A stretch of DNA of 64,000 nt, from positions 1,693,427 to 1,757,426 of the forward strand of contig CAWBLI010000005.1 of the NCBI GenBank assembly GCA_963789615.1, given 5' to 3'. The notes below the pieces were generated by a model. It was not told the origin of the DNA. It saw only the letters and a program-made list of their open reading frames with translations, and made no database searches. Positions within the stretch are counted from its first letter, which is position 1, and each line of letters opens with the position of its first letter. This stretch comes from an uncultured Actinomycetota bacterium (GTDB taxonomy: Bacteria; Actinomycetota; Actinomycetes; JAFAQI01). Of the stretch, positions 1 through 59,645 are shown piece after piece. A program made the position numbers and the translations under genes.

Positions 1-199
1 GGTTCTCGAGATCGCCGTCCACGGCAGCGGCGAACCGCCGGAGCAGCCGCGCCCGGTCACCGGGCGCGACGTCACGCCAGGCCGGGAACGCCGCGCGGCC
101 GCGGGCGATCGCGGCGTCGGTCGCTTCTGCGTCGTACAGCTCGACCGTCGTGACGACCTGCTCGTCGGCGGGATTGATGACGTCGTGCATCGAGGGCAT
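1..199 (-). CDS. aldehyde dehydrogenase family protein, N-terminal fragment (continues beyond left edge)
   Basis: Minus-strand reading from ATG at 197-199 gives MPSMHDVINPADEQVVTTVELYDAEATDAAIARGRAAFPAWRDVAPGDRARLLRRFAAAVDGDLEN, a typical ALDH N-terminus. It is absent from the ORF track only because no stop lies in the window. It sits 14 nt downstream of the GS-like gene on the same strand. Confidence 0.7.
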   Translation of the reverse strand, partial: MPSMHDVINPADEQVVTTVELYDAEATDAAIARGRAAFPAWRDVAPGDRARLLRRFAAAVDGDLEN

Positions 200-213
200 G
201 AGAGGTGGCGTCC

Positions 214-1572
214 CTACATCCGTTCGAATCCGCGGATCCGCTCCCAGTCGGTGACCGTGCCGTTGAACGCGGCCAGCTCGACCCGGGCGGTGTTGAGGTA
301 GTGGTCGACGACGGCGTCGCCAAGCGACTCGCGAGCAAGCGCGCTGCCGGCCAGCAGGTCGGCGGCCTCCTGCAGGGTGGTGGGCACCCGCTCGGCGTCG
401 GCGACGTAAGCATTGCCCCCGAACGCCTCCGGCAGCGGCAGCTCGTGCTCGATGCCGTAGAGGCCGGCGGCGATCATCGCGGCCACCGCGAGATAGGGGT
501 TGACGTCGCCGCCGGGCACCCGGTTCTCGAACCGCAGCGACGAGCCCTGGCCGACCACGCGCATCGAGCAGGTGCGGTTGTCGATGCCCCACATGACGGC
601 GGTCGGCGCGAACGACCCGGCCTGGAACCGCTTGTAGGAGTTGATGTTCGGCGCGAAGAACGCGCTCAGCTCCCGCAGCCCGGCGAGCTGCCCGGCCAGG
701 AAGTGCTCGAAGACCTCGGAGACTCCGTGCTTGCGGTCACCAGCGAAGACCGGTACGCCGTCCTCGTCGCGCAGCGACAGGTGGATGTGGCAGGAGTTGC
801 CCTCACGCTCGTTGTACTTCGCCATGAAGGTCAGCGCGGAGCCGTGCTGCGCCGCGATCTCCTTGGCGCCGTTCTTGTAGATGGAGTGGTTGTCGCACGT
901 CCGCAACGCTTCGTCGAACTTGAACGCGATCTCGTGCTGGCCGAGGTTGCACTCGCCCTTGGCCGACTCGACCTGCAGCCCCGAGTCGCGCATTCCGAGA
1001 CGGATCGCGCGCAGCAGCGGCTCGACCCGGGCGGTGCCGAGCACGGAGTAGTCGACGTTGTACTGGTTGGACGGGATCAGGTCGCGATAGCCCTTCGACC
1101 AGGCCTGCTCGTAGGTGTCGTCGAAGAGGATGAACTCCAGCTCGGTGCCGACGTAGGCCTTCCAGCCGCGCTCGGCGAGCCGGTCGAGCTGGCGCTGCAG
1201 GACCTGACGCGGCGACTCGACGACGGGTGAGCCGTCCAGCCACAGCACGTCGGCCAGCACCATCGCCGAGCCGGGCAGCCACGGGATCCGCCGCATCGTG
1301 GCGAAGTCCGGCACCATCACGAGGTCGCCGTAGCCGCGCTCCCACGAGGAGATGGTGTAGCCGTCGACGGTGTTCATCTCGATGTCGACCGCGAGCAGGT
1401 AGTTGCAGCCTTCGCTGCCGTGCTCGAGAACTTCGTCGACGAAGTACTCCGCGTCGAGCCGCTTGCCCTGCAGCCGGCCTTGCAGGTCGACGAGGGCCAG
1501 GACCACCGTGTCGATCGACCCGTTGTCGACGTCGAGACGGAGCTCCTCGATCGTCAGTGGTGCAGCGGGCAT
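214..1572 (-). CDS. glutamine synthetase family protein, gamma-glutamyl-amine synthetase type (GlnA4/PuuA-like)
   Basis: 452 aa ORF with GS catalytic-domain motifs (GTELEFILF, NSCHIHLSL, NSYKRF, RFENRVPGGDVNPYL). It is flanked by GntR, an amidotransferase-like hydrolase and an ALDH, as in the Streptomyces glnA4 (gamma-glutamylethanolamide synthetase) and E. coli puu loci. Confidence 0.85.
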   Translation of the reverse strand: MPAAPLTIEELRLDVDNGSIDTVVLALVDLQGRLQGKRLDAEYFVDEVLEHGSEGCNYLLAVDIEMNTVDGYTISSWERGYGDLVMVPDFATMRRIPWLPGSAMVLADVLWLDGSPVVESPRQVLQRQLDRLAERGWKAYVGTELEFILFDDTYEQAWSKGYRDLIPSNQYNVDYSVLGTARVEPLLRAIRLGMRDSGLQVESAKGECNLGQHEIAFKFDEALRTCDNHSIYKNGAKEIAAQHGSALTFMAKYNEREGNSCHIHLSLRDEDGVPVFAGDRKHGVSEVFEHFLAGQLAGLRELSAFFAPNINSYKRFQAGSFAPTAVMWGIDNRTCSMRVVGQGSSLRFENRVPGGDVNPYLAVAAMIAAGLYGIEHELPLPEAFGGNAYVADAERVPTTLQEAADLLAGSALARESLGDAVVDHYLNTARVELAAFNGTVTDWERIRGFERM

Positions 1573-1637
1573 TGCGCTCCGATCCCGAGAAGGTCTGCCG
1601 ACCGTACCTCCTGAGCGAGTTCTTCGGTACGACGACG

Positions 1638-2372
1638 TCAGCAGAGCAGGCCGCGCAGCAGCGCGGCGGTGGCGTCGACGTGCTCTTCCATCTCGGCCCG
1701 GGCAAGCTCCGGCTGACCGGCGAGGATCGCCGCGATGATCGCCGCGTGCTGCCGGTCGGAGTGCGCGATGTTGGCGGGGATGACGGGGATGGCGCGCAGC
1801 ATCTCGGTCAGCCGCATCTGCACCTCGGCGACCACCGCGACGACGGCGGCGCTTTCCCCTGCCGCCGCGATCGCCATGTGCAGCCGGGAGTCCGCGAGCC
1901 GCCGCAGCTCGGGGTCGCTGGTGGCGGCGTCGTTCAAGCAGCCGTGCAACGTGGCACGGTCAGCTGCCGACAGGGTCCGGGTCGCCGCGAGCGCTGCCGC
2001 TCCCGGCTCGACAATCCGACGCAGGTCGAGGGCGTCGTTGACGGCAGCCGGCGACGGACGGTCGGTGTGGTCCCGGGTGGCGGGCCGCGAGTCGGTGGGC
2101 GCGACGACGAAGGTTCCCCCGCCGCGACCTCGCCGGGACTCCACCAGGTCCGCGGCACGCAGCGCCTTGATCGCCTCGCGGAGCGTTACCCGCGAGACAC
2201 CCAGCGTGTCGGCCAGCTCGCGTTCGGGAGGGAGCCGGTCGCCACCGGCGAGGACGCCGAGCCGGATGCTCTGGGCCAGCCGCTCGATCGTCACCTCAAA
2301 GGCGTTGCGCACCGGCACCGGCGCGAACACCGACCGGGCCCAGAGCGCCTCGACGTTGCCCGTAGTGGTCAT
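1638..2372 (-). CDS. GntR/FadR family transcriptional regulator
   Basis: N-terminal wHTH (LPPERELADTLGVSRVTLREAIKALRAADLVESRRGRGGGTFV) plus a FadR-type all-helical C-domain. I prefer the ATG at 2372 (MTTTGN), which overlaps the upstream stop as ATGA, over the track start at 2384. Confidence 0.85.
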   Translation of the reverse strand: MTTTGNVEALWARSVFAPVPVRNAFEVTIERLAQSIRLGVLAGGDRLPPERELADTLGVSRVTLREAIKALRAADLVESRRGRGGGTFVVAPTDSRPATRDHTDRPSPAAVNDALDLRRIVEPGAAALAATRTLSAADRATLHGCLNDAATSDPELRRLADSRLHMAIAAAGESAAVVAVVAEVQMRLTEMLRAIPVIPANIAHSDRQHAAIIAAILAGQPELARAEMEEHVDATAALLRGLLC

Positions 2373-3094
2373 GCCGCGGCCCACTCACGGCAGGCCTCGA
2401 CGAAGGCCGCGAACAGCGGTTCGCCGCCGACCACCTCGGGATGCCACTGCACTCCCAGCGTCCAGCGCCCGTCGGCACGCTCGACCGCCTCGATGGTTCC
2501 GTCGTCCGCCCAGCCGCTCGCCACCAGCGCGCGAGGGACCTCGGCGACGGCCTGGTGGTGATAGGTCGCGACCTCGATCCGGTCACCGACGATCGCGGCC
2601 AGCCGGCTGCCCGGCGCGACCTTGACGTCGTGACGGCCGTGTTCTCCGACGACCGGGCAGTGGGCGTCACCGCCGACCAGGTCCGGGAGGTGCTGCACCA
2701 GCCCAGCGCCGTGCGCCACCGCCAGCACCTGCATCCCACGGCAGACGCCCAGGACCGGCATCCCGCGTTGCTCGGCCGCCGACGCCAGGGTGAGCTCCCA
2801 GGCATCGCGGTCCACCCGCCCCGGCCCGGTGCTCGGGTCGCGCTCCGCGCCGTACCGGTCCGGGTCGACGTCGGCACCGCCGGTCAGCAGCAGGCCGTCG
2901 ATTCCCGCGAGCGCGGCCTCGACGACCTCGGCATGGGCGGGGCCGGGCGGCAGCAGCATCGGCACGCCGCCCGCGGCGGTGACGCCGGCCGCGTAGCTGA
3001 CCGGCAGCAGGTCGGCCGGCTCGTGCCACACCCCCCAGGCAGCGATCTCCCGGTACGTCGTCAACCCCACCCGCGGCGGCGGCGCGGTCGTCAC
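2369..3094 (-). CDS. gamma-glutamyl-gamma-aminobutyrate hydrolase family protein (class I glutamine amidotransferase-like, PuuD-like)
   Basis: 241 aa with the nucleophile-elbow motif GVCRGMQVL and a C-terminal WHPE motif typical of peptidase C26/PuuD. The GTG start overlaps the upstream stop (GTGA). Confidence 0.8.
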   Translation of the reverse strand: MTTAPPPRVGLTTYREIAAWGVWHEPADLLPVSYAAGVTAAGGVPMLLPPGPAHAEVVEAALAGIDGLLLTGGADVDPDRYGAERDPSTGPGRVDRDAWELTLASAAEQRGMPVLGVCRGMQVLAVAHGAGLVQHLPDLVGGDAHCPVVGEHGRHDVKVAPGSRLAAIVGDRIEVATYHHQAVAEVPRALVASGWADDGTIEAVERADGRWTLGVQWHPEVVGGEPLFAAFVEACREWAAA

Positions 3095-5560
3095 GTGACG
3101 CCCTTCAACCGCTTGCCGGCGGGATCGAACACCGGCTCGGCGACGACGGTGCCACCGTGCCGCTCACCGAACAGCTCGACGGTCACCGGCGTACCAGGCT
3201 CGGCGTCGCCGATGTCGAGGTAGCCGAAGCCGATCGAGGCTCCGACCGAGTAGCCGTAGCCGCCGGAGGTGATCCGGCCGGTGATCCGGTCGCCGACCCG
3301 GACCGGCTCGCTGCCGAGGACGACCGCGCGCGGATCGTCCATCGTGATCGCACACAGCCGCCGGGCCAGGCCGCGCTCGCGGGCCGCGATCAGCGCGTCA
3401 CGGCCCTCGAAGCCGCCGGGCTTGTCGAGCTTCACGCAGAAGCTGAGCCCCGCCTCGTCGGGCGACGTCTCCGGCGTGATGTCCGAGCCCCAGACCCGGT
3501 AGCTCTTCTCGATCCGCATGCTCTCGATGGCGTGGTAGCCGCCGACCACGAGGTCGTCGTCCTGGCCGGCCTCCCACAGCGAGCGCCACAGCGCCGCGCC
3601 GTACTCGGACGACGCGTAGAGCTCCCAGCCGAGCTCGCCGACGAACGTCACGCGCTGGGCACGGACCGGCACATCTCCGACGGTGATCTGCTGAGCGGTC
3701 ATGAACCGGAAGTCGTCCTCGTCGAGCGAGGTCGGCGTGAGCCGGCCGAGGATGTCGCGCGATCGGGGGCCCCACAGCGCGAAGCAGGCATAGCGCCCGG
3801 TGACGTCGGTGATCCGTACGTCGGCGGCGCGCCGTCTTGCCTGGGTTCGCAGCCACGCCAGGTCGTGGGTACCGTACGCCGTGCCGGTGACGATCTGGAA
3901 CTCGTCGTCATCGGTCCTGGTCACGGTGATGTCGGACATGATCCCGCCGCGCCGGTTGAGCGCCTGGGTGTAGGTCACCGCGCCGACGGCTCGCGCGACC
4001 CGGTTGTCGCACACCCACTCGAGCAGGTCGGCCGCGTCCGGGCCGGTCACCTCGATCATCGCGAACGACGACTCGTCGAACAGCCCGGCGCTCGCCCGGG
4101 TGCCGAGGTGCTCGACACCGACAGCAGGTGAGAACGGGCGAGCCGCCCAGCCGCGCGGGCGCAGCGACTCGTCCCCCCGCGCGATGTTGTGCCGGTAGTA
4201 GTCGACCCGCTCCCAGCCGGCCTTCTCGCCGAAGTGCGCGCCGTGCTCGCGATGCCAGGGGTACGCCGGGCTGGTGCGCAGTGGGCGACCCGAGGTGCGT
4301 TGCAGCCCGGGAAACGCGATGTCGTAGTAGGTCTGGTAGTTCTCCAGGGTCCGGCCGAGGGTGTAGCGCGGCGAGCGGTAGTGCCGCCCGAACCGGTTGA
4401 TGTCCATGTGCCAGACGTCGAAGCTGGGCTCACCCTCGACGATCCACTCCGCCATGACCCGGCCGATGCCGCCCGCGCCCGCGATGCCGTGCGCGCAGAA
4501 GCCGGCGGCGACAAAGAACCCGTCGACGTCGGTCTCGCCCAGGCAGAACTCGTTGTCCGGGGTGAACGCCTCCGGGCCGTTGATGATCCGGCGTACCCCG
4601 ACGTCGGCCATCGCCGGCACTCGGACCGCCGCGTTCGTCGCGATCTCCTCGAACCGCGGCCAGTCCTCCGGCAGCAGCCGCCCGTTGAAGGCCGGGTCTA
4701 TGGCGTCATACGACGTCGACGCTGGCGGTCCACGGTGCCGGGTCACGCTCGTAGCCGCCCATGACCAGGCCGTCGACCTCCTGCCGGTAGTAGACGAGCA
4801 GGTCCGGATCGCGCAGCGTGGGCAACGGCGCGCTGCGCGGCGGCAGGAACGCCTCGGTGACCAGGTACTGGTGCGACATCGGGACCACGGGCACCCGCAC
4901 GCCCGCGAGCCGGCCGATCTCGGCGGCGAACATGCCGCCGCAGTCGACGACGACCTCACACGCCACGTCGCCGCGGTCGGTCCGGACCCCGGCGACCCGC
5001 CCCGCCTCGACATCGATGCCGACCACCCGGGTGTGGGTGCGGATGGTCGCGCCGCCGGCCCGGGCGCGCGCTGCTAGCGCCATGCACAGCTGCGACGGGT
5101 CGAGATATCCGTCCGATTCCAGGTAGGCCGCACCGACCACACCCTCGGTGCTCATCAGCGGGAACCGCTCTGCCGCCTCGGCCGGGGAGATCTCGTGCAG
5201 CGGCAGGCCGTAGGCCCGGGCCCAGCCGATCTGCCGGCGGATCTCCTGCAGCCGATCTGGACTGGAGGCGAGCTTGATGCCGCCGCTCTCGGTCCAGCCG
5301 ACCGGGTTCTCGCCGGCCTGCAGGCTGCGGTAGAGCTCGACGGAGTACATGTTCATCCGGGTCAGCGTGGGATCGGCGCGCAGCTGCCCGACCAGCCCGG
5401 CGGAGTGGAACGTCGACCCGCTGGTGAGCTCGTCCCGGTCGAGGACCAGCACGTCGCGCTCGCCCAGCTCGGTGAGGTGGTAGGCGACGCTGGCTCCGCC
5501 GACACCGCCGCCGATGACGACGATCCGGGCAGCGCTCGGGAGGTCTCGCTCGGCGGTCAC
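3091..5560 (-). pseudogene. FAD-dependent oxidoreductase fused to GcvT-type aminomethyltransferase (dimethylglycine/sarcosine dehydrogenase-like), one frame break as assembled
   Basis: The N-terminal ORF 4706..5560 has the dinucleotide fold (IVVIGGGVGGASVAYHL) and a DAO domain. The C-terminal part of ORF 3091..5013 has a GcvT domain ([38 protein letters not shown]). The two frames join at ~4715-4745 (..GGYERDPAPW / SYDAIDPAFNGRLLPEDW..). Confidence 0.8.
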
Positions 5561-5593
5561 CGCGCCATCATGACGTGCGCCGACCTCACAGAA

Positions 5594-5614
5594 AAGGTCT
5601 TGGCACTAGACCTT
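5594..5614. promoter_or_regulatory. candidate GntR-type operator palindrome AAGGTCT-N7-AGACCTT
   Basis: Perfect 7-bp inverted repeat in the 143-bp divergent intergenic region between the FAD-GcvT operon (start 5560) and the kinase gene. The core GGTCT..AGACC fits the generic GntR t.GT-N-AC.a architecture. Confidence 0.35.
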
Positions 5615-5703
5615 GAACGGATTCGGCCCTACGATTCGCCCACCCCGAGGGCGAGAGCCCGTCGACGCGCCGTCGCGGGCTCACACGGAAGCAGGGAGGG
5701 CGT

Positions 5704-6666
5704 GTGAGCAGTGCACGCGCCGCTGCCCGTCCAGTAGGTGAGATGACGCTCGACGCCGCGATCCCAGCCGTCATCGAAGACGTCGTACGACGGGTGCCCG
5801 AGTTGTCCGACGGGCCGGTTCACGTGTCCCCGCTGCCGGGCGGGCTGACGAACCAGAACTACAAGGTCGTCGCGGCGAGCGGTCGCCAGGCAGTGATCCG
5901 GCTGTCGAGTGCTCAGGGTGCACTGCTCGCGATCGATCGCGATGTCGAGCACGCCAACTCGCTCGCCGCCGCGGCTGCAGGTGTCGCTCCCGCGGTCCTC
6001 GCGTACCTGCCCGACCTCGGTGCGTTGGTCATCGACTGGATCGAGGGCCGGACCCTCGGGGCGGCCGACCTCGACGACGCCGCGACGGTCGCCCGAGTTG
6101 CGGACACCTGCCGGCGGCTGCACGCCGGGCCGCGGTTCGCCGCCGACTTCGACATGGTGGCGCTCCAGCGTCGTTATCTCGACCTCGTCGTGTCCGAGGG
6201 CTATCGGCTGCCAGCGACGTACCTCGACCTGATGCCGCAGATCACGGCGATCGGTGCGGCGCTGCGGGCCCGGCCACTGCCCACCGTGCCCTGCCACAAC
6301 GACCTGCTGCCGGCGAACCTGATGGACGACGGCGAGCGGATCTGGTTCGTTGACTTCGAGTACTCCGGCAACGGCGACCCCTGCTTCGAGCTCGGCAACA
6401 TGTGGAGCGAGACCGAGTTCCCGGCCGACCGGCTCGACGGGATGGTCGAGGCGTACTTCGGTCGGCCCTCGCGCGCGATGGTCGCCCGGGCCCGGCTGTT
6501 CGGGCTGCTGGCGAACTACGGCTGGACGTTGTGGGCGTCCATCCAGACCGCCACCAGTGCGGTGGACTTCGACTTCTGGACCTGGGGGATGGGGAAGTTC
6601 GATCGGGCGGCCGCCGAGCTCGGGGGCCCAGACATGGCGGGGTTGATCAGCGATGTGCAGCAGTGA
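5704..6666 (+). CDS. choline/ethanolamine kinase family phosphotransferase (APH fold)
   Basis: Motifs LPGGLTNQNYKV (nucleotide loop), CHNDLLPANLM (Brenner H-x-D-x4-N) and WFVDFEYSGNGDPCFELGN (choline-kinase motif). An alternative ATG at 5743 is preceded by GGTGAG. Confidence 0.75.
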   Translation: MSSARAAARPVGEMTLDAAIPAVIEDVVRRVPELSDGPVHVSPLPGGLTNQNYKVVAASGRQAVIRLSSAQGALLAIDRDVEHANSLAAAAAGVAPAVLAYLPDLGALVIDWIEGRTLGAADLDDAATVARVADTCRRLHAGPRFAADFDMVALQRRYLDLVVSEGYRLPATYLDLMPQITAIGAALRARPLPTVPCHNDLLPANLMDDGERIWFVDFEYSGNGDPCFELGNMWSETEFPADRLDGMVEAYFGRPSRAMVARARLFGLLANYGWTLWASIQTATSAVDFDFWTWGMGKFDRAAAELGGPDMAGLISDVQQ

Positions 6667-6690: not shown

Positions 6691-8262
6691 GTGACTGACA
6701 TCACGGGGTTGAGCGCGGACGACCAACGGCTCGCCGAGCTCGGCTACAAGCAGGAGCTGAACCGCTCGTGGTCCGGCTTCTCCAACTTCGCCATCTCGTT
6801 CTCGATCATCTCGATCCTGGCGGGCTGCTTCACCAGCTTCGGGCTCGGCTGGAACAACGGCGGCCCGATGGCGATCTTCTGGGGCTGGCCGATCATCTCG
6901 GCCTTCATCCTTGTCATCGGCTTCTGCATGTCGGAGCTGGTCTCGGCGTTCCCGACCTCGGGCGGGATCTACTGGTGGGCGTCGAAGCTCGGCGGCGCGA
7001 AGGCGGGGTACTACACCGGCTGGCTCAACCTGATCGGGCTGCTCGCCATTGTCGCGTCCGTCGCCTACGGCTGCGCGACGTTCTTCGACCTGACGCTCTC
7101 GACGTTCAGCAGCTCGTGGGCTAGTCACTACTCGCTGGACCGGGTCTTCATCGAGTTCATCGTCGTCCTGGTGCTGGCGTCGGTCATCAACATCTTCTCG
7201 AGCCACCTGCTCGCGGTTCTCAACAATGTGTCGGTCTGGTGGCACGTCTTCGGTGCCGCCGCCGTCATCCTCATCCTGTTCCTCGTCCCGGGCCACCACG
7301 CCAGCCTCCACACGGTCGCCACGACCCGGGTGAACAACACCGGCCTGTTCGGCGGCAAGACCACGGGTGCCGGCTTCATCCTCTATGTGCTGCCGCTGGC
7401 GGCAATCCTCACGCAGTACACGATCACCGGGTACGACGCCTCGGCGCACCTGTCCGAGGAGACGAAGAGCGCGGCCGACAGCGCCGCGAAGGGCATCTGG
7501 CGGTCGATCTTCTACTCGGCGGTCGGTGGCTGGATCCTGCTGCTGTCGTTCCTGTTCGCCGTCCAGAGCGTCAGCGGCGTCACGACCGGTGGCGGTGCGG
7601 TCAACACGATCTTCAGCCAGGCACTGGGCACCAACTGGCACGGCACCGTGCTCATCATCTCCACGTCCGGGCAGTTCTTCTGCACCGTGGCGTGTATGAC
7701 CAGCACGACCCGAATGCTGTTCGCGTTCAGCCGCGACGGAGCGGTGCCCGGCGGCAAGTACTGGCGGACACTGTCTGCCAGCCGGGTACCGATCTACGGC
7801 GTCATCCTCTCGGCGGTCATCGCGGTCATCCTCACGCTGCCCGCGCTGGTGAAGGTCGACATCGGTGGGGCACCGGTGCCCGTCGCTTTCTTCGCGGTCG
7901 TCTCGATCGGTGTCGTCGGCCTGTACCTCGCCTTCGCGATCCCGATCTACTACCGCTGGAAGGCGGGCGACAGCTTCGTTACTGGCAACTGGACGCTTGG
8001 CTCGAAGTACAAGTGGATGTGCATCGTGGCGATCGTCGAGATCATCGTCACCTCGATCGTGGCGTTGCTCCCGACATCGATCGGTGGCGTGCCGTGGGAG
8101 ACGGGCTTCGCGTGGAAGTACGTCAACTACACGATCCTCGTCGTACCCGGCGCCTTGATCGTGCTGTGGATCTACTGGCACGCCTCGGTGAAGAACTGGT
8201 TCACCGGGCCGAAGCACACGATCGACCTGCTGCCCGAGCAGGTCGCCGGCGCCACCGAGTAA
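6691..8262 (+). CDS. APC family amino acid/amine permease
   Basis: 523 aa, ~12 predicted TM helices, APC signature region (GFCMSELVSAFPTSGGIYWWA). The RBS AAGGGGGA precedes the GTG start. Confidence 0.85.
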   Translation: MTDITGLSADDQRLAELGYKQELNRSWSGFSNFAISFSIISILAGCFTSFGLGWNNGGPMAIFWGWPIISAFILVIGFCMSELVSAFPTSGGIYWWASKLGGAKAGYYTGWLNLIGLLAIVASVAYGCATFFDLTLSTFSSSWASHYSLDRVFIEFIVVLVLASVINIFSSHLLAVLNNVSVWWHVFGAAAVILILFLVPGHHASLHTVATTRVNNTGLFGGKTTGAGFILYVLPLAAILTQYTITGYDASAHLSEETKSAADSAAKGIWRSIFYSAVGGWILLLSFLFAVQSVSGVTTGGGAVNTIFSQALGTNWHGTVLIISTSGQFFCTVACMTSTTRMLFAFSRDGAVPGGKYWRTLSASRVPIYGVILSAVIAVILTLPALVKVDIGGAPVPVAFFAVVSIGVVGLYLAFAIPIYYRWKAGDSFVTGNWTLGSKYKWMCIVAIVEIIVTSIVALLPTSIGGVPWETGFAWKYVNYTILVVPGALIVLWIYWHASVKNWFTGPKHTIDLLPEQVAGATE

Positions 8263-13369: not shown

Positions 13370-13676
13370 CGCTACCCCCGTGAGTCACTGCATCGGGATC
13401 GAGTGCCTGACCTCCGAACGTATGGAATCGACGGCGAGGCGAGCGGGAGATCGCGCAACTTGGTCACAACGAGCCACGACGCCCACCCAAGACCCCTCCG
13501 ACCGGGCCAGGGATGTGGGCCTTACCGACCGTCGAGCGCCGTTCGCACCAGTTGACCGCACGGCTGGGCCGCCTCAAGCAGCCACTGAAATCGACGCCGT
13601 GTGAGGATCGTGGGGTGGTCTTCGGCCGGGGTCGTCGCACTCTCGGCTTAGCGACCGGACGATCACAGATGTCGGC

Positions 13677-15736: not shown

Positions 15737-15761
15737 AACCAGACGCTGCCCGGCTCACCAC

Positions 15762-46338: not shown

Positions 46339-46587
46339 GTGAAGACCCTTCTGTTCGCCCGGCGCGCACCACTCGCAGCATCCACCATCCGAGCCGCCAG
46401 GGCCGGGAAGTTCGCGCGATTCCTCACGCGGACTTCCCCTTCTCGGCGAGCGAGTGGCGTTGCAGTCCGCGAACCTAGTCGCGGGATACGCAACATTGAC
46501 CCGTAGGCCGAGGACTGTCAACCTCTTCCGCGAAGGTGCTTCCGGGTTGTTACCTGAAGGCATGGGACGAGTACGGACGGACAGGGC

Positions 46588-51702: not shown

Positions 51703-53745
51703 CGGTCTCCTCGTTGATGATTCGGGCATCGAGCGCCAACGCCCCGGCCGGTGTGACCAGGAGCGGGTTGATCTCGAGCTCGCCGATATCGCGGGATCCG
51801 CGGTGGCGATATCGCCGACAGCGACGATCAGGCGCGCGGCGGCGTCGAGGTCGACGGGGGTGCGGCCGCGGGCGCCGGTCAGCAGGCCGGCACCGCGCAG
51901 CCGGCTCGAGCATCGCTGATGCCCGCGGCAGGTCGAACGGCGCCAGGTCGACCTGCACGTCGTCGAAGAGCTCGGTGAAGATGCCGCCGATCCCCACCAT
52001 GACCACCGGTCCGAAGTGCGGGTCGCGACGGGCGCCGACGATCGAGCTCGACCCCGTCAGTGGCGTCGGCCAGCACCTCGACGACGCAACCGTCCGGCGC
52101 CAGCAGCGCCACCATCTCGCGGTACGCCGCCACCAGGTCGGTGACCGTCTCGATGCCGAGCCGGACGCCGCCGGCATCGGACTTGTGCAGCAGGCCGTTG
52201 GCCTTAGCACCCAGGGAGCGTGCAGCCGTTGGGCGGCCTGGATGAGGGCGGCCTCGTCGCGGACCAGCCGGGCCGACGGGAACGGCAACGCCCGCGGCCG
52301 CGAGCCGCTGCCTCGCGGTCCAGTAGTCGACTGCCGCTGACGTGGTCCGGGACGTGGAGGGTCGGCGCGACGCGCTGTCGCGGGTGGTGCGAGCCGACCC
52401 AGCCCGACGGTGGCGGACTCGACCCGCCGGAACACCGCGAGGCCGCGGGCCCGCAACCGGTCGGCCATCGGCGACGCGGGGAACATGGTGTGCACCGCGA
52501 CCGGTCGCCCGGTCCGGTGCACGACGTCGGCAAGCTCGGTCGGCGATGTCCAGCTCGGCAGCGGCGAGCTCCGGGCCGTACTCGCCGTACCCACCGAAGT
52601 AGCCGCTGACCAGGAGCGCGTCGACCTCACCGGCGTCGAGCAGGTCGGCCGCCACCCGGGGGATGCAGTGCAGGTCCTGCTCGGCGCCGCCTGCGACGTC
52701 GACCGGGTTGGACGTCGCGGCGTGGGACGGCAGGTGGCCGGCGATCCGCGCCCGCAGCGGGTCGGAGAGCACCGGTACGTCGAGACCGGACCGGTGGGCC
52801 AGCTCGGCAGCGACGGCGGCATGCCCACCACCGTCGGTGAGGACGGCGAGCCGGCGCCCCGCCGGTCGGGCCGGGGCCGCGAGCAATGCCAACAGGTCCG
52901 CGAGCTCGCCGAGGCTGTGGACGCGGTAGGCGCCGGCCACGGCGCACGCGGCGTCGATGACCGCCGACGCCGAGACCATCGAACCGGTGTGAGAAGCCGC
53001 AACCCTCGCCGCTGCGGGGCTCGACCCGGCGGCCAACACGACGACCGGCTTCCCGACCGAGCGGGCCGCCTCGACGAACCGGCGGCCGTCGGTGAACTGC
53101 TCGACAGTAGACGGCGATGACGTCGGTGTCGGCGTGGTCGGCGCACGACTCGATCAGCTCGGGCAGCTCGATGTCCGCCTGGTTGCCCACCGAGACGAAC
53201 CGTGAGAAACCCAACCCGTGCTCGACCAGCAGCCCGGCGAGGTCGAGGGAGAGGTTGCCGCTCTGCGAGAGCAGCGCCACCCGACCGGAGGGCAACGGGT
53301 TGGACGTCAGCCGCAAATCGCTGGCCGCGTCGAAGAGTCCGAGACAGTTCGGGCCGAGCAGCCGCGCACCGGCGGACCGCACCCGCCGCGCCATCTCCTC
53401 CTCGACCCGGCGGCCGCCGTCGCCGGTCTCGGCGAACCCCGCCGCGATCCCGACGACCGCCGCCGCGCCCGCGGCGAGCGCGTCGTCGACCGCCTCCGGC
53501 ACCTGCGGCGCGGGCACGCACAGCGCGACCAGCCCGACCGGACCCGGCACATCCGCGACTGACCGGTAGGAAGCCCGGCCGAGGACGACGTCACGGCTGC
53601 GGTTGACGAGGTACGCCGGCCGGGGCCCGGTGAGCGCCGCGCGGCCGAGCCAGTTGCCCCACTTCCGCTCGTCGTCACTCGCGCCGACGACGACGACCGA
53701 CACCGGGTCGAACAGCGCCGCCAGGGAGTCGACGACGACGGTCAT
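51686..53745 (-). pseudogene. ADP-forming acyl-CoA synthetase (acetate--CoA ligase family; CoA-binding + succinyl-CoA-synthetase-like + ATP-grasp), about eight frame breaks as assembled
   Basis: N-terminus VVVVGASDDERKWGN..LLGPNCLGL..LLSQSGNL..VSVGNQADI. The gene then hops frames at ~53098, ~52545, ~52365, ~52295, ~52205, ~52040, ~51895 and ~51795. This recovers ..VEQFTDGRRFVEAARSVGKPVVVLAAG.., ..VLKANGLLHKSDAGGVRLGI.., ..IVGARRDPHFGPVVMVGIGGIFTE.., ..ELEINPLLV. Confidence 0.8.
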
Positions 53746-54539
53746 CTGCCCTTCCAGTGCGGAGCTCGCCGCTCCGCGAACGCCGCCGGCCCCTCGGCCG
53801 CATCCTCGGAGGCCAGCATCGCGTCGTACCGGGTCAACCGGCCGGAGCGCATGGTGCGGTAGCCGTCGGCCACCGACCCGCCCTCGGTCGCGGCGAGCAC
53901 CTCCAGGACGGCAGCGACCGCGAGCGGTGCGGATCGCACGATCCGGCGGGCGAGGTCGCGGGCCGCGGTCAGCAGGAGGTCGGCGGGGACGACCTGGTTG
54001 ACCAGGCCGAGGTCGAACGCCTCGTCCGCGCCCAGCCGGCGGCCGGTCAGGAGCAGCTCGACGGCCAGCGGGCGCGGCAGCCGTCGCGGCAGCCGAAGGA
54101 CGCCGCCCGCGTCCGGGATGATCCCGAGGCCGGTCTCCGGCAGGCCCACCTCGGCGACGTCGGACATCACGATCAGGTCGGCGGCCAGCGCCAGCTCGAA
54201 GCCGCCGCCGAGCGCCAAGCCGTTGACCGCCGCGATGACGGGCTTGGTCCGGTCGTGCAGCTCGGTGAGCCCGGCGAAGCCACCGGGGCCGTGGTCGGCG
54301 TCGACCTCCTCGCCGGCGGCCGCGGCCTTGAGGTCCCAGCCAGCGCAGAAGAACCGCTCGCCGCCGCCGGTGATGATGCCGACGCGGAGCTCGGGGTCGG
54401 CTTCGAGACGGGCGAAGGCGTCGTACAGCGCGAGGCTGGTCGGGGCGTCGACGGCGTTCGCCTTCGGCCGGTCGAGGGTGATGGTGAGGATCCCGTCGGC
54501 GGCCTCGACCCGCACCGGATCGTTGGTAGTGCTCGACAT
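53742..54539 (-). CDS. enoyl-CoA hydratase/isomerase family protein (CaiD carnitinyl-CoA dehydratase-like)
   Basis: 265 aa from [29 protein letters not shown]. Crotonase motifs FCAGWDLKA and [20 protein letters not shown]. It starts 1 nt after the ACAD stop and its stop overlaps the ACS start. Confidence 0.8.
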
Positions 54540-54540
54540 C

Positions 54541-55706
54541 TCAGGCTCCCCGCTCCCGCAGCATCGCCCGCGAGATGATGTGGCGCTGCACCTCGCTGGT
54601 GCCGTCCCAGATCCGCTCGACCCGGGCGTCACGCCAGAACCGCTCGATCGGCAGGTCGCTCATCAACCCCATGCCGCCGTAGATCTGGACCGCGCGGTCG
54701 GTCACCCGGCCCAGCATCTCCGATGCGTAGAGCTTCGCCATCGCAGCGTCGGAGTCGCTCATCCGGCCCTCGGTCAGCTTCCACGCGGCCTGCAGCGTCA
54801 GCAGCTCCGCAGCCTCGATCTCGGTGGCCATGTCGGCGAGCTGGAAGCCGACGCCCTGGAACCGGCCGACCGGCTGCCCGAACTGGTGGCGGCTCGCCGC
54901 CCATTCCGTGCTCAGCTCCATCACCCGTCTCGCGCGGCCGACGCTGAACGCCGCCACGGTCAGCCGGCTGGCACCGAGCCACTCGCTGAGCAGGTCGAAG
55001 CCGCGGCCCTCGTCGCCGAGCAGCGCCGTACCCGGCACCCGGCAGTCGACGAAGGACAGCTCGCAGTGGTGGTAGCCGCGGTGCGAGACCGACGCCGCAC
55101 CGCGGCGCACGGTCAGGCCTGATGTGTCGTGGTCGACGAGGAACGCGGAGATCGCACTTCGCTCCCCACGCGCCGTCTGCTCGGTGCCGGTCACCGCGAA
55201 CAGCACGACGAAGTCGGAGACGTCCGCGTGGCTGATGAAGTGCTTGGTGCCGTTGATGATCCAGCGTCGCCGTCGCCGTCCCGCCGGGCGCTCGTCGTCA
55301 TGGCCCGCACGTCGGAGCCGGCGCCGGGCTCGGTCATCGCGAGGCAGTCGTGCCGCTCGCCGCGGATCGTCGGCAGCAGATAGCGCTCGACCTGCTCGCC
55401 CTGACAGGCCTGCAGGATGTTGCTGGGCCGGGTGACCAGCGCCTGCAACGCGTACGACGTCCACCCCAGCTCCCGCTCGACCAGCGTCAGCGACAGCGCG
55501 TCGAGGCCGCCGCCGCCGAGCTCGGCGGGGAAGTTCGCGGCGTACAGGCCGGCGGCGATCGCCTTGCCTCGGATGTCACGGGCCAGCTCGTCGGGGACCT
55601 CGTCCAGCCGCTCGACCAGGTCCTCGTGCGGCACCAGCTCGCGGCGGACGAAGTCGCGGACGGTCGCGACGATCGCGCGGCGTTCCTCGTCGAGCCCGAA
55701 GTCCAT
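54541..55706 (-). pseudogene. acyl-CoA dehydrogenase, one frame break as assembled
   Basis: MDFGLDEERRAIVATVRDFV..CLAMTEPGAGSDVRAMTTSARRDGDG, then the break at ~55273, then [47 protein letters not shown]. Confidence 0.85.
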
Positions 55707-55717
55707 GACGCTGCCCC

Positions 55718-56200
55718 TCAGCCCACCGGCCGGCGGATGCCCATGACGTGACCGACCGCGTCGGGGCGCGGCAGCGAGGCGTGGGCGTCGCGGATCGCGG
55801 CGATGCGTTCGTAGAGGTCGGTCGGCATCGGGACGACGCGACCGCTCGCCATGTCGACGTGGACGAGCAGCTGCTCGGCGGTCGCGACCGGTTCGCCGGT
55901 GGACTCGTCGCGCACCACGAGGAACAGGTGCAGGCTCTTCGGGCCTAGGTCGAGGACCTGCAGCGTCGAGTCGAGGTGGTCGCCGAGCCCGGACTCCCGC
56001 AGGTGGTGCAGGTGAGTCTCGGCGGTGTAGAGCGAATGACCGGCGGCGCGGTAGTCGTCGTCGATCCCGACGTACCGGAAAAACGCGTCTGCCACGTCGC
56101 CCACCATGACGAGGTAGTTGGCCTCGCTCATGTGGCCGTTGTAGTCGAGCCAGTCGGAGGGCACGACGGTCCGGTAGAGGGCGAGCGGCGCATCGATCAC
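55718..56200 (-). CDS. hotdog-fold thioesterase (betainyl-/carnitinyl-CoA thioesterase-like, CdhB-like)
   Basis: 160 aa with VVPSDWLDYNGHMSEANYLVM..YTAETHLHHLRE. It is a clear paralog of the C-terminal domain of 58205..59645 (VREEWIDYNGHLHDACYAIVL..YTVECHIRFLAE). Confidence 0.75.
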   Translation of the reverse strand: MIDAPLALYRTVVPSDWLDYNGHMSEANYLVMVGDVADAFFRYVGIDDDYRAAGHSLYTAETHLHHLRESGLGDHLDSTLQVLDLGPKSLHLFLVVRDESTGEPVATAEQLLVHVDMASGRVVPMPTDLYERIAAIRDAHASLPRPDAVGHVMGIRRPVG

Positions 56201-56257
56201 GACGCGGCGACCCCCAACCCGGAGCGTCGCTCCCGCGAGATCGGTGCGACGAGTGTT

Positions 56258-56276
56258 CGTATCGTGCGACGATAGG
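56258..56276. promoter_or_regulatory. candidate IclR operator CGTATCG-N5-CGATAGG
   Basis: Imperfect palindrome in the 115-bp divergent region between the thioesterase operon (start 56200) and IclR (56316). Its half-sites resemble those of 23361..23385. Confidence 0.3.
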
Positions 56277-56315: not shown

Positions 56316-57140
56316 GTGAGCACACCCGAGGGCGTCGTCGATCCCGCGGACCCGGCCGCCGACTCACCCACGATCTCGCCCGTCGGCTCGGGCGGCCGGG
56401 TGCAGTCGGTAGAGCGCGCGCTGGCCCTGCTCGACGCTGTCGCGGCGGCCTCACCGCGGGGCGAGACGGTGGCCGAGCTGGCGCTGGTCTGCGGGATCAA
56501 CCGCGCGACCGCCTGGCGGCTGCTCGCCACGCTGGAGGCACACGGCCTGGTCGACCGGGACCCCGGCACCAACCGCTACCAGGTCGGGTACACCGTCGCC
56601 CGGCTGGCCGCGTCCTCCGGCGTCGACGGGCTGGTCCGTCGTACCCATCACGTTCTCGAGCGGGTCTGCAATAAGACCGGTGAGGCGGCCGATCTGGCGG
56701 TCGGCCGACGTACCGAGCTGGTGTACGTCGACGAGGTCGCGCCGCCCGCGGTGCTCACGGTCAACTGGCTCGCTCGCCCGGTGCCGCTGCACGCGACCTC
56801 GACCGGCAAGGCGTGGCTGGCGTGGCTCCCGGCCGCGGAGGTCCTCGGCCTGCTCGGCACCCACCTCGAGGGCTTCACCGACGCGACCGTCACCGACATC
56901 CCGCGGCTGCTCGCCGAGCTCGAGGAGATCCGCGAGCGGGGCTTCGCCGTCTCCGCCGGGGAGCTCGAGACCACGCTGTACGGCGTGTCCGCTCCGGTGC
57001 TGCGGGTTGGCGAGGAGCGACCGCTCGCGGTGTTCAGCATCTGGGGCCCGGTCAACCGGGTGCCCGCCGCCCGATTCGAGGCGCTCGGCGCGGTGGCGAT
57101 CGAGGCCGCCGCGGCGGTCGAGGTGGCGCTGCGCGACTGA
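56316..57140 (+). CDS. IclR family transcriptional regulator
   Basis: GTG at 56316 (AGGA 7 nt upstream). wHTH VQSVERALALLDAVAAASPRGETVAELALVCGINRATAWRLLATLE and an effector domain GFAVSAGELETTLYGVSAPV. Confidence 0.85.
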   Translation: MSTPEGVVDPADPAADSPTISPVGSGGRVQSVERALALLDAVAAASPRGETVAELALVCGINRATAWRLLATLEAHGLVDRDPGTNRYQVGYTVARLAASSGVDGLVRRTHHVLERVCNKTGEAADLAVGRRTELVYVDEVAPPAVLTVNWLARPVPLHATSTGKAWLAWLPAAEVLGLLGTHLEGFTDATVTDIPRLLAELEEIRERGFAVSAGELETTLYGVSAPVLRVGEERPLAVFSIWGPVNRVPAARFEALGAVAIEAAAAVEVALRD

Positions 57141-57268
57141 GCGAGCTGGTACTGCTTGACAACCGGACCCGAGTCCGAGACCGTTTCACATGCTGCAGTG
57201 CACGACTCATTATGTGCGTTCGATGCGCTGTGCATTCATCGTCTGTGTAGTCGACTTCGGAGGTTCCC

Positions 57269-58208
57269 GTGGCGCCAGCCCGCAAGGTCATCATCACGTG
57301 CGCGGTCACCGGGTCCGGTCACACGCCCACGATGTCGCCGCACCTGCCCTACACGGTCGAGGACGTGGTCGGCCAGTCGGTCGCCGCCGTCGCGGCCGGG
57401 CGCGTCGGTGATCCACCTGCACGCCCGTGACCCCAAGGACGGCAGCCCGACCGCCGACCCCGCGGTGTTCCTCGAGTACCTCAAGGCGATCAAGGCCGAG
57501 ACCGACGCCGTGATCAGCATCACGAGCGGCGGCGCCACCGACCAGACGGTGGCCCAGCGGCTGCGGGTGATCTACGAGACCAAGCCCGAGCTGTGCACCC
57601 TCAACCTGGGGACGTTCAACTACGGCAGCTTCCCGATGATCCCGAAGTACGCCGGCCAGTGGAAGTTCGACTGGGAAGAGCCGTATCTCGAGAGCACCCG
57701 TACCGAGCCGTTCGTCAGCACCTTCGCCGACATCGAGCGCATGCTCACCGACGTCGGCCCGGAGACCGGGGCGCGCTTCGAGTACGAGGCCTACGACGTC
57801 GGGCACCTCTACACGCTCGCGTACTACCTCGAGGCCGGGCTCGTGAAGCCGCCGATCTTCCTGCAGACAATCATGGGCGTGATGGGCGGCATCGGCGCCG
57901 AGGTCGACCACCTCTCCCACATGAAGAACACCATCGACAAGCTGTTCGGCGACGCGGTGCAGTGGTCGGTGCTGGGCGCCGGGCGGCACCAGTTCAACAT
58001 GATCACGGTCTCGGCCGTGATGGGCTCGCACGTGCGGGTCGGGCTCGAGGACGGGCTGTTCATCGGCAAGGGCCAGCTGGCGTCGTCGAACGCCGAGCAG
58101 GTCGAGAAGATCACGCGGATCCTCGGCGAGCTCTCGTTGGATATCGCCACACCGGCCGACACCCGCGAGATCCTCGGCCTCAAGGGCATCGACCAGGTCG
58201 GTTGGTGA
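57269..58208 (+). pseudogene. beta-keto acid cleavage enzyme (BKACE/DUF849; dehydrocarnitine cleavage enzyme CdhC-like), one frame break as assembled
   Basis: GTG 57269 with RBS GGAGG 5 nt upstream. VAPARKVIITCAVTGSGHTPTMSPHLPYT..AAG, then the break at ~57399, then ASVIHLHARDPKDGSPT..ISITSGG..GRHQF..HVRVGLEDG (ORF 57156..58208). Confidence 0.8.
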
Positions 58209-59645
58209 GCCAGGGCGGCCGCCCGTCGCCGGAGGACGTCCGCACCGTCGCGATCATCGGGACCGGTGTCATCGGCGCCGGGTGGGCGGCGCACTTCCTG
58301 CGGATGGGCTACGACGTCGTCGCGCTGGGATCCCGGTGCCCGGGCCGAGGAACGGCTCGGCTCGCTGGTTGACACGGCGTGGCCCTCATTGGAGCGGCTC
58401 GGGCTTGCTGATGGTGCGTCGCGTGACCGGCTGCGGTTCTCCGACACGTTGGCGGGTGCGCTCGCCGGCGCGGACTTCGTGCAGGAGTCCGCGCCCGAGG
58501 TGCTCGACGACAAGGTGGCGCTGCTGGCCTCGATCGACGCGGCCACGCCGGCCGGCATGGTGGTGGCGTCGAGCACGTCGGGATTCATGATGAGCGACAT
58601 GGCCGTCGGTACGACGACGCCGGGGCGGTTCGTGGTCGGTCACCCGTTCAACCCGCCGTACCTGATCCCGATCGTCGAGGTCGTCGGCGGCCAGGACACC
58701 GATCCCGACGTGGTCGCGTGGGCGGAGACGTTCTACACGCTGGCCGGCAAGGTGACCCTGACGATGGACCGCGAGGTCCCGGGCTTCGTCGGGAACCGGC
58801 TGCAGGAGGCACTGTGGCGCGAGGCGCTGCACATGATCGACTCCGGCCAGGCGACGGTGCAGCAGATCGACGACTCGATCGCCTACGGCCCGGGGCTGCG
58901 GTGGGCGCTGATGGGGCCGATGCTCACCTTCCACCTGGCCGGCGGCCAGGGTGGCATGGCGCACATGCTGGACCAGTTCGGCCCCGCGCTGCTCGAGCCG
59001 TGGACTCGGCTGACGGCGCCCGAGCTGACGCCGCGGCTGCGGGACCTCGTCGTGGCGGGCGTGGACGAGTCGGTCGGCGACACCACGATCCGCGAGCTGG
59101 AGCAGCAGCGCGACGCGTTCCTCGTCGACCTGTTGCTGTTGCTCGAGAAGTATCGCCGCCGACTGAGCTGCATGCCGGCGCGCCTTACCAGCGGCTACCG
59201 CACCGACGTCCGCGAGGAATGGATCGACTACAACGGCCACCTGCACGACGCCTGCTACGCCATCGTCCTGAGCGAGGCGAACGAAGTGATGTTCGCTGAC
59301 CTCGAGCTCAGCGAGGACTACCGCGTCGAGACCGGTCGGGCGATGTACACGGTCGAGTGCCACATCCGCTTTCTCGCCGAGAGCAAGCGCGGCGACACGC
59401 TGGTCGCGTCGTCGATCCTGGTCAGCGCCGACCCGAAGCGGATGCGAGTGCACACTCTGCTGAGTCTGGACGACGGCACCGCCGTTGCGACCGGCGAGTT
59501 CTTCTACCTGCACGTCGACGAGGCCGCGGGCGGCGTCACGCCGATGCCCGACGACCGATGGGCGCTCGTCGAGGCGCTGCTCAGTGCGCACGCGTCACTG
59601 GAACGACCCGCGCATCTCGGTCGCGGCGTCGCCGCCCCGCGCTAA
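58205..59645 (+). pseudogene. lcdH: L-carnitine dehydrogenase (3-hydroxyacyl-CoA dehydrogenase fold) fused to C-terminal thioesterase, one frame break as assembled
   Basis: The GTG start overlaps the BKACE stop (GTGA). VRTVAIIGTGVIGAGWAAHFLRMGYDVVA, then the break at ~58326, then WDPGARAEERL..FVQESAPE..GHPFNPPYLIPIVEVV..PGFVGNRLQEALWREA, followed by the hotdog domain. Confidence 0.8.

Follow-up and report, generated by a model that had tools for sequence, protein, structure and literature searches.

Gene content and organization of the locus

The DNA analysed here, a 64,000-nucleotide stretch from an uncultured Actinomycetota bacterium (contig CAWBLI010000005.1, positions 1,693,427 to 1,757,426; hereafter the window), originates from a soil actinobacterium, and its first 60 kb carry genes of families associated with the catabolism of choline, glycine betaine, carnitine and ethanolamine. 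Gene calling from codon-position GC and codon usage gave about 57 genes, in a region whose G+C content is even, at about 69 % throughout (0.66-0.75). The 60 kb consist of four modules with separate regulators, split by unrelated genes (Table 1): a GlnA4-type set (module 1), the choline and betaine genes from betA through betB (module 2), an ATP-binding cassette (ABC) importer operon ending in betC together with a NylB-like hydrolase, a major facilitator superfamily (MFS) transporter and a TIGR03767 phosphoesterase (module 3), and a carnitine-type set (module 4). We consider it probable that these are neighbouring catabolic modules converging on glycine betaine and glycine, in which module 2 would take choline to pyruvate, module 3 would import and de-esterify substrates, module 4 would convert gamma-butyrobetaine and carnitine into betaine, and module 1 would convert ethanolamine into glycine.

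An original prediction, made from the letters and open reading frames alone, had described the same stretch as one contiguous locus. NCBIfam and Pfam profile searches recovered every gene class that it listed at 1-59645, placed the Rieske protein, the FAD-GcvT fusion and the sulfatase in the proposed families (by the group-V signature, the match to 1PJ5 and the BetC equivalog model, respectively) and agreed with its counts of three regulators and five transporters. Two of its three metallophosphoesterases belong to TIGR03767; the third, a protein of about 320 amino acids (26840-27797), has only sub-threshold metallophosphoesterase matches in Pfam, and this label is tentative. The contiguity does not hold, given the four modules and the unrelated genes that occupy approximately 8.3-15.7 kb and 35.8-39.4 kb, and many of the genes, correctly classed, are broken by assembly errors that the prediction had not flagged. 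The observation is thus confirmed and its interpretation partly supported.

Table 1. Features of the window, with positions in window coordinates
Module	Feature	Position	Strand	Remarks
1	GlnA4 set	1-8.3 kb		whole module
1	aldehyde dehydrogenase, N-terminus	2-199	-	runs off window edge
1	GlnA4-like gamma-glutamyl-amine synthetase	214-1572	-	NCBIfam/Pfam
1	GntR regulator	1638-2384	-	NCBIfam/Pfam
1	C26 gamma-glutamyl hydrolase	2369-3094	-	NCBIfam/Pfam
1	second DAO-GcvT fusion, paralogue of dimethylglycine oxidase	3091-5560	-	frameshift near 4.70-4.75 kb
1	choline/ethanolamine-kinase-like phosphotransferase	5743-6666	+	Pfam APH and Choline_kinase above cut-off
1	APC amino-acid/ethanolamine-type permease	6691-8262	+	TIGR00907-like
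	frame of about 717 amino acids	9397-11548	-	frameshift near 10.57-10.62 kb
	secreted fn3-Exo_endo_phos protein	13677-15245	+
	short-chain dehydrogenase-like frame	15288-15760	+
2	choline/betaine genes	15.8-35.5 kb		whole module
2	TIGR03767 paralogue	15762-17379	-	last gene of betA operon; frameshift near 16.13-16.20 kb
2	etfA	17395-18372	-
2	etfB	18369-19139	-	directly downstream of dimethylglycine-oxidase fusion
2	DAO-GcvT fusion, dimethylglycine-oxidase orthologue	19145-21667	-	840 amino acids
2	betA	21664-23340	-	NF002550 870 bits (cut-off 605), TIGR01810 827 bits (cut-off 732), residues 2-551
2	copy related to TACGCAACAG	23354-23361
2	IclR-family regulator	23497-24318	+
2	257-amino-acid protein without family match	24315-25088	+	co-transcribed with IclR; 4-nt overlap with IclR stop codon
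2	APC-family permease	25154-26702	-	frameshift near 25.95 kb; intact in relatives (547-548 amino acids)
2	weakly metallophosphoesterase-like protein	26840-27797	-	frameshifted; intact in relatives (319-320 amino acids); divergent from Rieske gene
2	copies related to TACGCAACAG	27835-27842, 27954-27961
2	group-V Rieske oxygenase, candidate glycine betaine N-demethylase	28007-29197	+
2	SdaA, L-serine ammonia-lyase	29197-30570	+	TIGR00720, 688 bits (cut-off 345)
2	DAO-family flavoprotein	30641-32017	-	absent from L087
2	DksA/TraR zinc-finger protein	31957-32331	-
2	ferredoxin-NAD reductase	32328-33515	-	Pyr_redox_2/Reductase_C, HcaD/AndAa-like, glutathione-reductase-type
2	Rieske-type ferredoxin	33512-33844	-	HcaC-like, 142 bits
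2	two direct copies of TACGCAACAG	33868-33895	+	ferredoxin/betB divergent spacer
2	BetB betaine-aldehyde dehydrogenase	33999-35469	+	extra G at 34585
3	ABC importer-betC, NylB-like hydrolase, MFS, TIGR03767	39.5-50.6 kb		whole module
3	choline sulfatase BetC	39457-40977	-	TIGR03417; last gene of ABC operon
3	fused double ATPase	40991-42856	-
3	permease	42853-43758	-
3	permease	43755-44726	-
3	family-5 solute-binding protein	44746-46338	-	first gene of operon
3	copy related to TACGCAACAG	46488-46495
3	beta-lactamase-fold serine hydrolase, NylB-like	46588-47709	+
3	MFS transporter	47646-48878	-
3	TIGR03767 metallophosphoesterase	48899-50563	+
4	carnitine-type set	50.5-59.6 kb		whole module
4	first acyl-CoA dehydrogenase	50541-51702	-	several indels
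4	ADP-forming acyl-CoA synthetase (CoA ligase)	51686-53741	-
4	CaiD-like enoyl-CoA hydratase	53742-54539	-
4	second acyl-CoA dehydrogenase	54541-55706	-	indel at 55264
4	4HBT thioesterase	55718-56200	-
4	TCGTATCGTGCGAC, operator-like element	56257-56270	+	thioesterase/IclR spacer; single exact copy in window
4	IclR regulator	56316-57140	+
4	BKACE	57269-58208	+	extra base at 57401
4	carnitine-dehydrogenase-like 3HCDH plus 4HBT thioesterase	about 58240-59645	+	extra base at 58323; single reading frame 58209-59645
	YCII and ECF-type sigma-factor pair	59700-61354		right end

Interrupted genes and assembly errors

At least 13 genes of the window are interrupted by single-nucleotide indels, the frame switching mid-gene while the coding GC3 signal persists: the second DAO-GcvT fusion, the 717-residue protein, a GH26 protein, one TIGR03767 phosphoesterase, the APC permease of module 2, the 320-residue phosphoesterase-like protein, betB, both acyl-CoA dehydrogenases, the CoA synthetase, the BKACE gene, the carnitine-dehydrogenase-like gene and the YCII/sigma pair. 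Taken at face value, such damage would point to a decaying region in which much of the catabolism has been lost, a reading to which we give very little credence. When the window was compared with public soil-metagenome short-read contigs that are 96-100 % identical to it, single-base differences were found at 12017, 34585, 51393, 55264, 57401, 58323 and 60097; the seven corresponding indels of the window all lie at or beside predicted breaks, and none of them occurs in the short-read contigs. With these corrections, the breaks in BetB, BKACE, the second acyl-CoA dehydrogenase and the GH26 protein disappear, the carnitine-dehydrogenase-like protein recovers its Rossmann N-terminus, and the YCII gene regains a stop codon. 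The correction at 51393 is insufficient for the first acyl-CoA dehydrogenase, which further indels keep broken. Against the closest public relative of the window (L081, a metagenome-assembled genome (MAG) labelled Mycobacteriales, 90 % nucleotide identity), about 14 further frameshifting differences are concentrated within 2.3 kb (50.9-53.2 kb); metagenome depth at 96 % likeness or more is also low at 50900-53200, possibly a low-coverage patch of the source assembly.

Codon-position GC stays coding-like over every break, all the defects are 1-nt indels with no in-frame stops, deletions or insertion elements, and the orthologues of every broken gene that could be checked are intact in relatives. 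From the lack of the indels in the short-read contigs and the intact genes of the relatives, we conclude that the frameshifts stem from the assembly and do not mark pseudogenes; genuine pseudogenization is rejected on the read evidence.

Choline and glycine betaine genes

The betA operon (17395-23340, minus strand) is compact, its gene ends overlapping by 4 nt or sitting 5 nt apart, and its order is identical in the related loci L087 and L088. BetA scores above the curated equivalog cut-off over its full length. The fusion encoded next to it aligns end-to-end with the Arthrobacter globiformis dimethylglycine oxidase (1PJ5; 571 bits, residues 6-840), with which it shares the DAO, FAO_M and GcvT-like folate-binding architecture, compared with 267 bits to mammalian DMGDH; its L087 orthologue carries PF01266, PF16350 and PF01571. 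By this full-length similarity and identical domain order, it is predicted to be a member of the dimethylglycine oxidase/dehydrogenase fusions. Unlike the A. globiformis oxidase gene, it lies directly upstream of etfBA, which suggests a dehydrogenase passing its electrons to the electron-transfer flavoprotein rather than an O2-using enzyme. The divergent IclR gene and its co-transcribed partner are conserved as a pair in L087-L089; the partner has a weak NTP_transf_5 match (E 0.005) in its L087 orthologue.

The Rieske protein, whose true start is probably some 12-20 codons downstream of the annotated one, has Stc2 and CntA as its nearest solved structures. Alignment with these (3VCA and 6Y8J) reveals the motifs CRHRG...CTYHAW and E-C-Y-H-C-A-T-I-H, that is, the CxH...CxxH cluster ligands, the bridging glutamate, the His-x4-His iron ligands and a Cys-x-x-Cys pair. 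The E-C-x-H-C-x3-H signature marks the quaternary-amine group V of Rieske oxygenases (PMC10952381), and these motifs, common to CntA, Stc2 and GbcA/BmoA, assign the protein to this group at the level of sequence. The ferredoxin, reductase, zinc-finger and DAO-family genes constitute one operon (30641-33844, minus strand). A GbcB-like reductase (FNR-type with a plant-type ferredoxin domain) is lacking from the window, and the system falls outside the two-component GbcAB type: oxygenase, ferredoxin and reductase form a three-component system, unlike GbcAB. The best model of the corrected BetB is TIGR01804 (626 bits versus a cut-off of 669), with a lead of 131 bits over the next.

In the scheme that we propose, BetA and BetB would convert choline into glycine betaine, the first methyl group of which would be removed by the three-component group-V Rieske monooxygenase. 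The second would be removed by the dimethylglycine-oxidase orthologue, with electrons probably passing to EtfAB, and the third by the same enzyme or by another DAO-family flavoprotein of the window. SdaA would finally convert serine into pyruvate, the step from glycine to serine requiring a glyA encoded elsewhere.

Import operon, BetC and the TIGR03767 phosphoesterases

BetC matches TIGR03417 over profile positions 2-500 of 500, with 767 bits versus a cut-off of 433, and its L084 orthologue carries PF00884 and PF12411. The ABC operon is the same in L084 and L091, while the L090 version is without BetC; the operons of the window and of L084 both finish with BetC. The hydrolase gene adjoins the phosphoesterase gene in L081, L084 and L091, and the MFS gene (47.6-48.9 kb) is missing from relatives. 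The peptide-type importer would bring in an ester, BetC would cleave choline-O-sulfate, and the NylB-like esterase/amidase and the phosphoesterase, which is predicted to be cytosolic, would release choline or carnitine from other esters.

The phosphoesterase of module 3 scores 388 bits against TIGR03767 (cut-off 331). Its paralogue in module 2 is broken, its N-terminal piece reaching 273 bits to TIGR03767, and gives a two-frame match to the module 3 protein. Across 55 homologues of the module 3 protein, the metal-binding motif residues D62, G131-D132, N225-H226, H389-H390 and H433/H435 are invariant. Since a sequence search of the PDB returned no relative at E <= 1, a predicted structure and a fold search were used. 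The AlphaFold2 model (pLDDT 86.6, pTM 0.90) matches the glycerophosphodiesterase GpdQ, PhoD, Lmo2642, acid sphingomyelinase/SMPDL3 and Rv0805 with modest TM-scores, as would be expected from a common catalytic core carrying large inserts. The model incorporates the N-terminus into the fold, which points to a cytosolic protein. The family has no described function; the single paper that we found naming it speculates on organic-phosphate solubilization.

TIGR03767 genes occur in choline/carnitine clusters of several lineages, often closing an ABC-importer operon. One copy in the window ends the betA operon and the other lies between modules 3 and 4. In a Frankiales MAG (L173), a binding-protein/permease/ATPase operon ending in a TIGR03767 gene sits in the middle of a choline cluster; L086 and L172 have the same importer-plus-phosphoesterase operon, and in Goekera deserti the TIGR03767 gene and an OpuAC-type ABC system point in divergent directions. 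BetC also closes an ABC operon, and import of an ester followed by its de-esterification may thus be a general design. Such an arrangement is reminiscent of the ugpBAEC-ugpQ operon of Escherichia coli, an ABC importer operon ending in a matching hydrolase. We offer, as a tentative proposal that falls somewhat short of even odds, that the TIGR03767 proteins are cytosolic choline- or quaternary-amine-releasing phosphoesterases acting on glycerophosphocholine or phosphocholine (substrates that we infer), and that together with BetC and the NylB-like esterase they form an 'import, then de-esterify' front end sharing an ACGCAAC-type operator with the betaine-demethylation genes.

Carnitine-type genes

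The genes at 50541-56200 (module 4a) have intact orthologues in L081, L082, L084, L090 and L091. In the proposed route, the CoA ligase, acyl-CoA dehydrogenase, CaiD-like hydratase and thioesterase would convert gamma-butyrobetaine into L-carnitine, which the dehydrogenase would oxidize to 3-dehydrocarnitine; BKACE would combine this with acetyl-CoA to give betainyl-CoA, from which the thioesterase would free glycine betaine. Module 4 might instead degrade another beta-hydroxy or beta-keto acid, for example via 3,5-dioxohexanoate. The corrected BKACE, whose family membership is clear (PF05853 on near-identical homologues), passes the 3,5-dioxohexanoate:acetyl-CoA acetone transferase model NF053538 with 454 bits (cut-off 430), and some JGI records give close homologues this name; moreover, the hydratase and the corrected dehydrogenase remain under carnitine-specific cut-offs (355 bits versus 500 for CaiD, NF002936; 353 versus 414 and 399 versus 592 bits for NF005471 and NF005716). 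All four scores count against the carnitine route. However, the matches included no NCBIfam model whose name refers to dehydrocarnitine cleavage by a BKACE, and the nearest named model thus wins by default; for the same reason the carnitine reading of this enzyme rests on gene context. This context resembles cdhCAB, the neighbours being carnitine-dehydrogenase-like and CdhB-like thioesterase genes. The two carnitine dehydrogenase models are the top two for the dehydrogenase (the next reaching 233 bits), the match of the free thioesterase is confined to the C-terminal domain of carnitine 3-dehydrogenase, CaiD is the best model of the hydratase, and linkage of the module to BetC and betaine-demethylation genes recurs. 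We therefore retain the carnitine route and regard the alternative as improbable.

The original prediction had paired BKACE with a carnitine dehydrogenase-thioesterase. The cdhCAB-like context supports the pairing, while the BKACE passes the 3,5-dioxohexanoate model and the fusion is doubtful: the two domains form one open reading frame in the window and two overlapping genes in all five relatives examined (L081: 10936-12379). The L081 sequence departs from the window by four small indels at 59159-59193, and the fusion probably arose in the assembly. L081 also carries a DUF222 (HNH-type) gene (12392-13606) exactly where the carnitine-type module ends on its right; the corresponding point of the window (59652-59654) is without it.

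The GlnA4 module

Module 1 has the same gene set and order as the soil contigs L152 and L171, and its set and order match the SCO1610-SCO1615 cluster of Streptomyces coelicolor (GlnA4, EpuRI; PMC6529630), which likewise comprises an aldehyde dehydrogenase, a synthetase, a GntR-type regulator, a hydrolase and a permease. The GlnA4-like ligase scores 252, 232 and 211 bits, under every glutamine synthetase and gamma-glutamylputrescine synthetase cut-off, no GlnA4-specific profile being available. The fusion at 3091-5560 has single-frame orthologues in L152, L171, L092, L129 and L126, and the kinase-like gene and APC permease co-occur with the GlnA4 set in metagenome loci. The module is thus an independent unit conserved in relatives, fusion and kinase included, and its placement beside modules 2-4 may be no more than local. 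It would convert ethanolamine into glycine by the actinobacterial GlnA4 gamma-glutamylation route.

Module 1 and many soil relatives (window 3091-6666; L152, L171, L172) extend beyond the S. coelicolor cluster in having the DAO-GcvT fusion and the kinase-like gene as conserved members. The published ethanolamine pathway gives no role to either (PMC6529630). In L172, a fusion of the same type lies 6.5 kb from the ABC-plus-TIGR03767 operon.

Linkage among relatives and candidate operators

A neighbour census was performed within 10 kb of Rieske homologues (about 70 % identity) in the 80 actinobacterial genomes kept for analysis, from genera including Streptomyces, Lentzea, Amycolatopsis and Geodermatophilus. 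The reductase and the ferredoxin were each found in 74 of the 80 and IclR in 72, followed by betB (53/80), betA (47/80) and the DAO-GcvT fusion (about 40/80); sdaA was present in only 6. The full gene order of module 2 is kept in the close relatives L087-L089 (83-93 %). Module 3 adjoins module 4 in L081, L091, L084 and L090, and in L090 the ferredoxin and reductase genes directly abut the ABC operon. The linkage of modules 2, 3 and 4 is thus recurrent, and a TIGR03767 phosphoesterase is always part of it.

The divergent spacers of the cluster contain repeated elements. Four copies of the 8-mer ACGCAACA are present in the window versus 1.2 expected, each in a divergent promoter spacer (two in ferredoxin/betB, one in binding protein/hydrolase and one in GH26/EEP), and five of the seven window copies of CGCAACWG are in the three spacers of module 2. 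ACGCAAC-type sites recur in the orthologous spacers of L087, L088, L091, L084, L090 and L173, making this promoter motif a candidate shared operator of modules 2 and 3. The 14-mer TCGTATCGTGCGAC is conserved in the module 4 spacers of L081, L091, L082, L084 and L090; allowing three mismatches, it is no commoner in the window than chance, and only the exact copy counts. The distribution of the two elements suggests one regulon for modules 2 and 3 and a separate one for module 4, which would be under its own IclR regulator and operator. In this proposed two-regulon layout, the window resembles the GbdR/CdhR pair of Pseudomonas aeruginosa (PMC5806209).

Could the neighbourhood be fortuitous, four independent operons without integration beyond each module? 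Every module comes with a regulator of its own (GntR and two IclR), unrelated genes (secreted hydrolases, aldo-keto reductase, SRPBCC, MFS) lie between modules, and in L082 housekeeping genes follow the carnitine-type module. Also, bet genes were found within 10 kb of the GlnA4 module in 0 of 80 related metagenome loci, 38 of which span at least 9 kb. We nevertheless think chance unlikely: four lineages have modules 3 and 4 side by side and the module 2 ferredoxin and reductase genes abut them in one of these, modules 2 and 3 have a conserved promoter motif in common, and the phosphoesterase family ties choline and carnitine genes together in several orders. The recurrence of modules 2-4 together in other lineages indicates that their clustering is more than chance. 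In the synteny comparison that the original prediction proposed, linkage is supported for the choline/betaine, BetC/ABC and carnitine-type genes and not for module 1, which was beside bet genes in none of these related loci.

That last result weighs against convergence of all four modules, and it is not alone in doing so. The best model of the Rieske protein is GbcA (NF058607; 216 bits, the next 94), the cut-off of which (670) is not reached; in this, and in its three-component-type partners, the protein differs from the group-V examples. The window has neither folate-recycling nor sarcosine oxidase genes (no glyA, folD, purU or soxBDAG) and no classical betaine/choline transporter of the BCCT or OpuAC type. 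Finally, the exact 8-mer CGCAACWG is not enriched upstream of the Rieske gene in 80 more distant actinobacterial genera, which limits the motif claim to the lineage of the window and the MAGs shown.

Intervening genes and rejected features

The inter-module genes encode an aldo-keto reductase, the 717-residue protein, a secreted CBM4_9-GH26 protein, a secreted fn3-Exo_endo_phos protein, an SRPBCC protein, an MFS transporter and a secreted protein. The 717-residue protein, which adjoins the GH26 protein, gave no Pfam or NCBIfam match. The fn3-Exo_endo_phos gene has ACGCAACA upstream at 13680 (region 13380-13900). Its superfamily includes sphingomyelinases, so this gene might encode a choline-phosphoester-releasing exoenzyme of the same regulon; chance is equally possible. 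Between it and the phosphoesterase, a short-chain dehydrogenase-like frame (MTTTLITGATGG...VLVNNAGI...) appears frameshifted and cut short, perhaps as the remnant of a gene or as another casualty of the assembly. The YCII/sigma pair at the right end has a counterpart in L087 (83 % identical), where the pair (12810-14815) is flanked by sdaA and the zinc-finger gene. The DAO-family gene holds this slot in the window, a local rearrangement within the cluster.

We also considered the whole 60 kb as a mobile island and rejected this idea, as the region has no tRNA, integrase or transposase and its GC content is even. A tRNA-Asp (anticodon atc) called by ARAGORN at 48055-48129 (minus strand) lies inside the MFS reading frame, has no Rfam support and is probably spurious; an Rfam scan of the window found no riboswitch or other RNA family.

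Discussion

Each of the pathways proposed here is already known; what is new is the actinobacterial component set, the recurrent linkage of modules 2, 3 and 4, the candidate operators and the phosphoesterase association. The original prediction had contrasted the locus with proteobacterial functions spread over several loci. This contrast is overstated, as shown by Pseudomonas and Vibrio: in P. aeruginosa one clone, PA5380-PA5389, extends from gbdR to cdhR (PMC5806209), and Vibrio species have contiguous betaine clusters (PMC12093977). In P. aeruginosa, carnitine and choline catabolism converge at glycine betaine, the former encoded by the caiX-cdhCAB-hocS operon (PMC5806209). As proposed for the window, both routes continue from betaine to glycine and then to pyruvate via serine dehydratase, the carnitine operon includes a binding protein, BKACE, dehydrogenase, thioesterase and acylcarnitine hydrolase, and two interlocking regulators accompany genes that lie close together. 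The region in this species comprises betIBA, cbcXWV, sdaB, gbdR, caiX-cdhCAB-hocS, cdhR, dgcAB, gbcAB and soxBDAG, with a wider layout over PA5372-PA5421. The components nevertheless differ: where P. aeruginosa has the single GbcB reductase, DgcAB, AraC/TetR regulators and an OpuAC-type importer, the window has, respectively, a Rieske ferredoxin with a separate glutathione-reductase-type reductase, a fused enzyme of the dimethylglycine-oxidase type, IclR/GntR regulators and a peptide-type ABC importer. It is without SoxBDAG, glyA and purU, and has BetC, TIGR03767 phosphoesterases and a gamma-butyrobetaine-type CoA branch that set it apart from the P. aeruginosa region. The predicted end of the pathway in glycine, serine and pyruvate has SdaA for its last step and lacks a local gene for the conversion of glycine into serine.

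The betICBA locus of Sinorhizobium meliloti is similar to the window in that BetC is clustered with the choline oxidation genes; there betC is part of the bet operon, whereas in the window it is the last gene of the ABC operon, 4 kb from betB. S. meliloti also has a BKACE route from dehydrocarnitine to betainyl-CoA and a bifunctional carnitine dehydrogenase/betainyl-CoA thioesterase, according to citations in PMC12482172 and PMC10132767. This one-protein enzyme is to be compared with the fusion in the window, probably an assembly artefact. S. meliloti, unlike the window with its candidate Rieske demethylase, demethylates betaine by BHMT, not by a Rieske enzyme (PMC12093977).

For annotation, our results come with a warning: the indel errors would turn more than a dozen pathway genes into called pseudogenes. 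For biology, the turnover of choline, glycine betaine and carnitine in soil has been largely credited to proteobacterial pathways, and this locus and its relatives outline an actinobacterial version. It would comprise a three-component group-V Rieske demethylase, accompanied by betA and betB in most of the 80 loci, a dimethylglycine oxidase fusion together with EtfAB, and a carnitine/gamma-butyrobetaine branch of modular build, and candidate operators are supplied for two of its regulons. The TIGR03767 family gains a concrete, testable proposal of function, the best lead of this analysis; if it is true, the neighbourhood would be a salvage system for phospholipid headgroups and osmolyte esters, extending beyond an osmolyte funnel.

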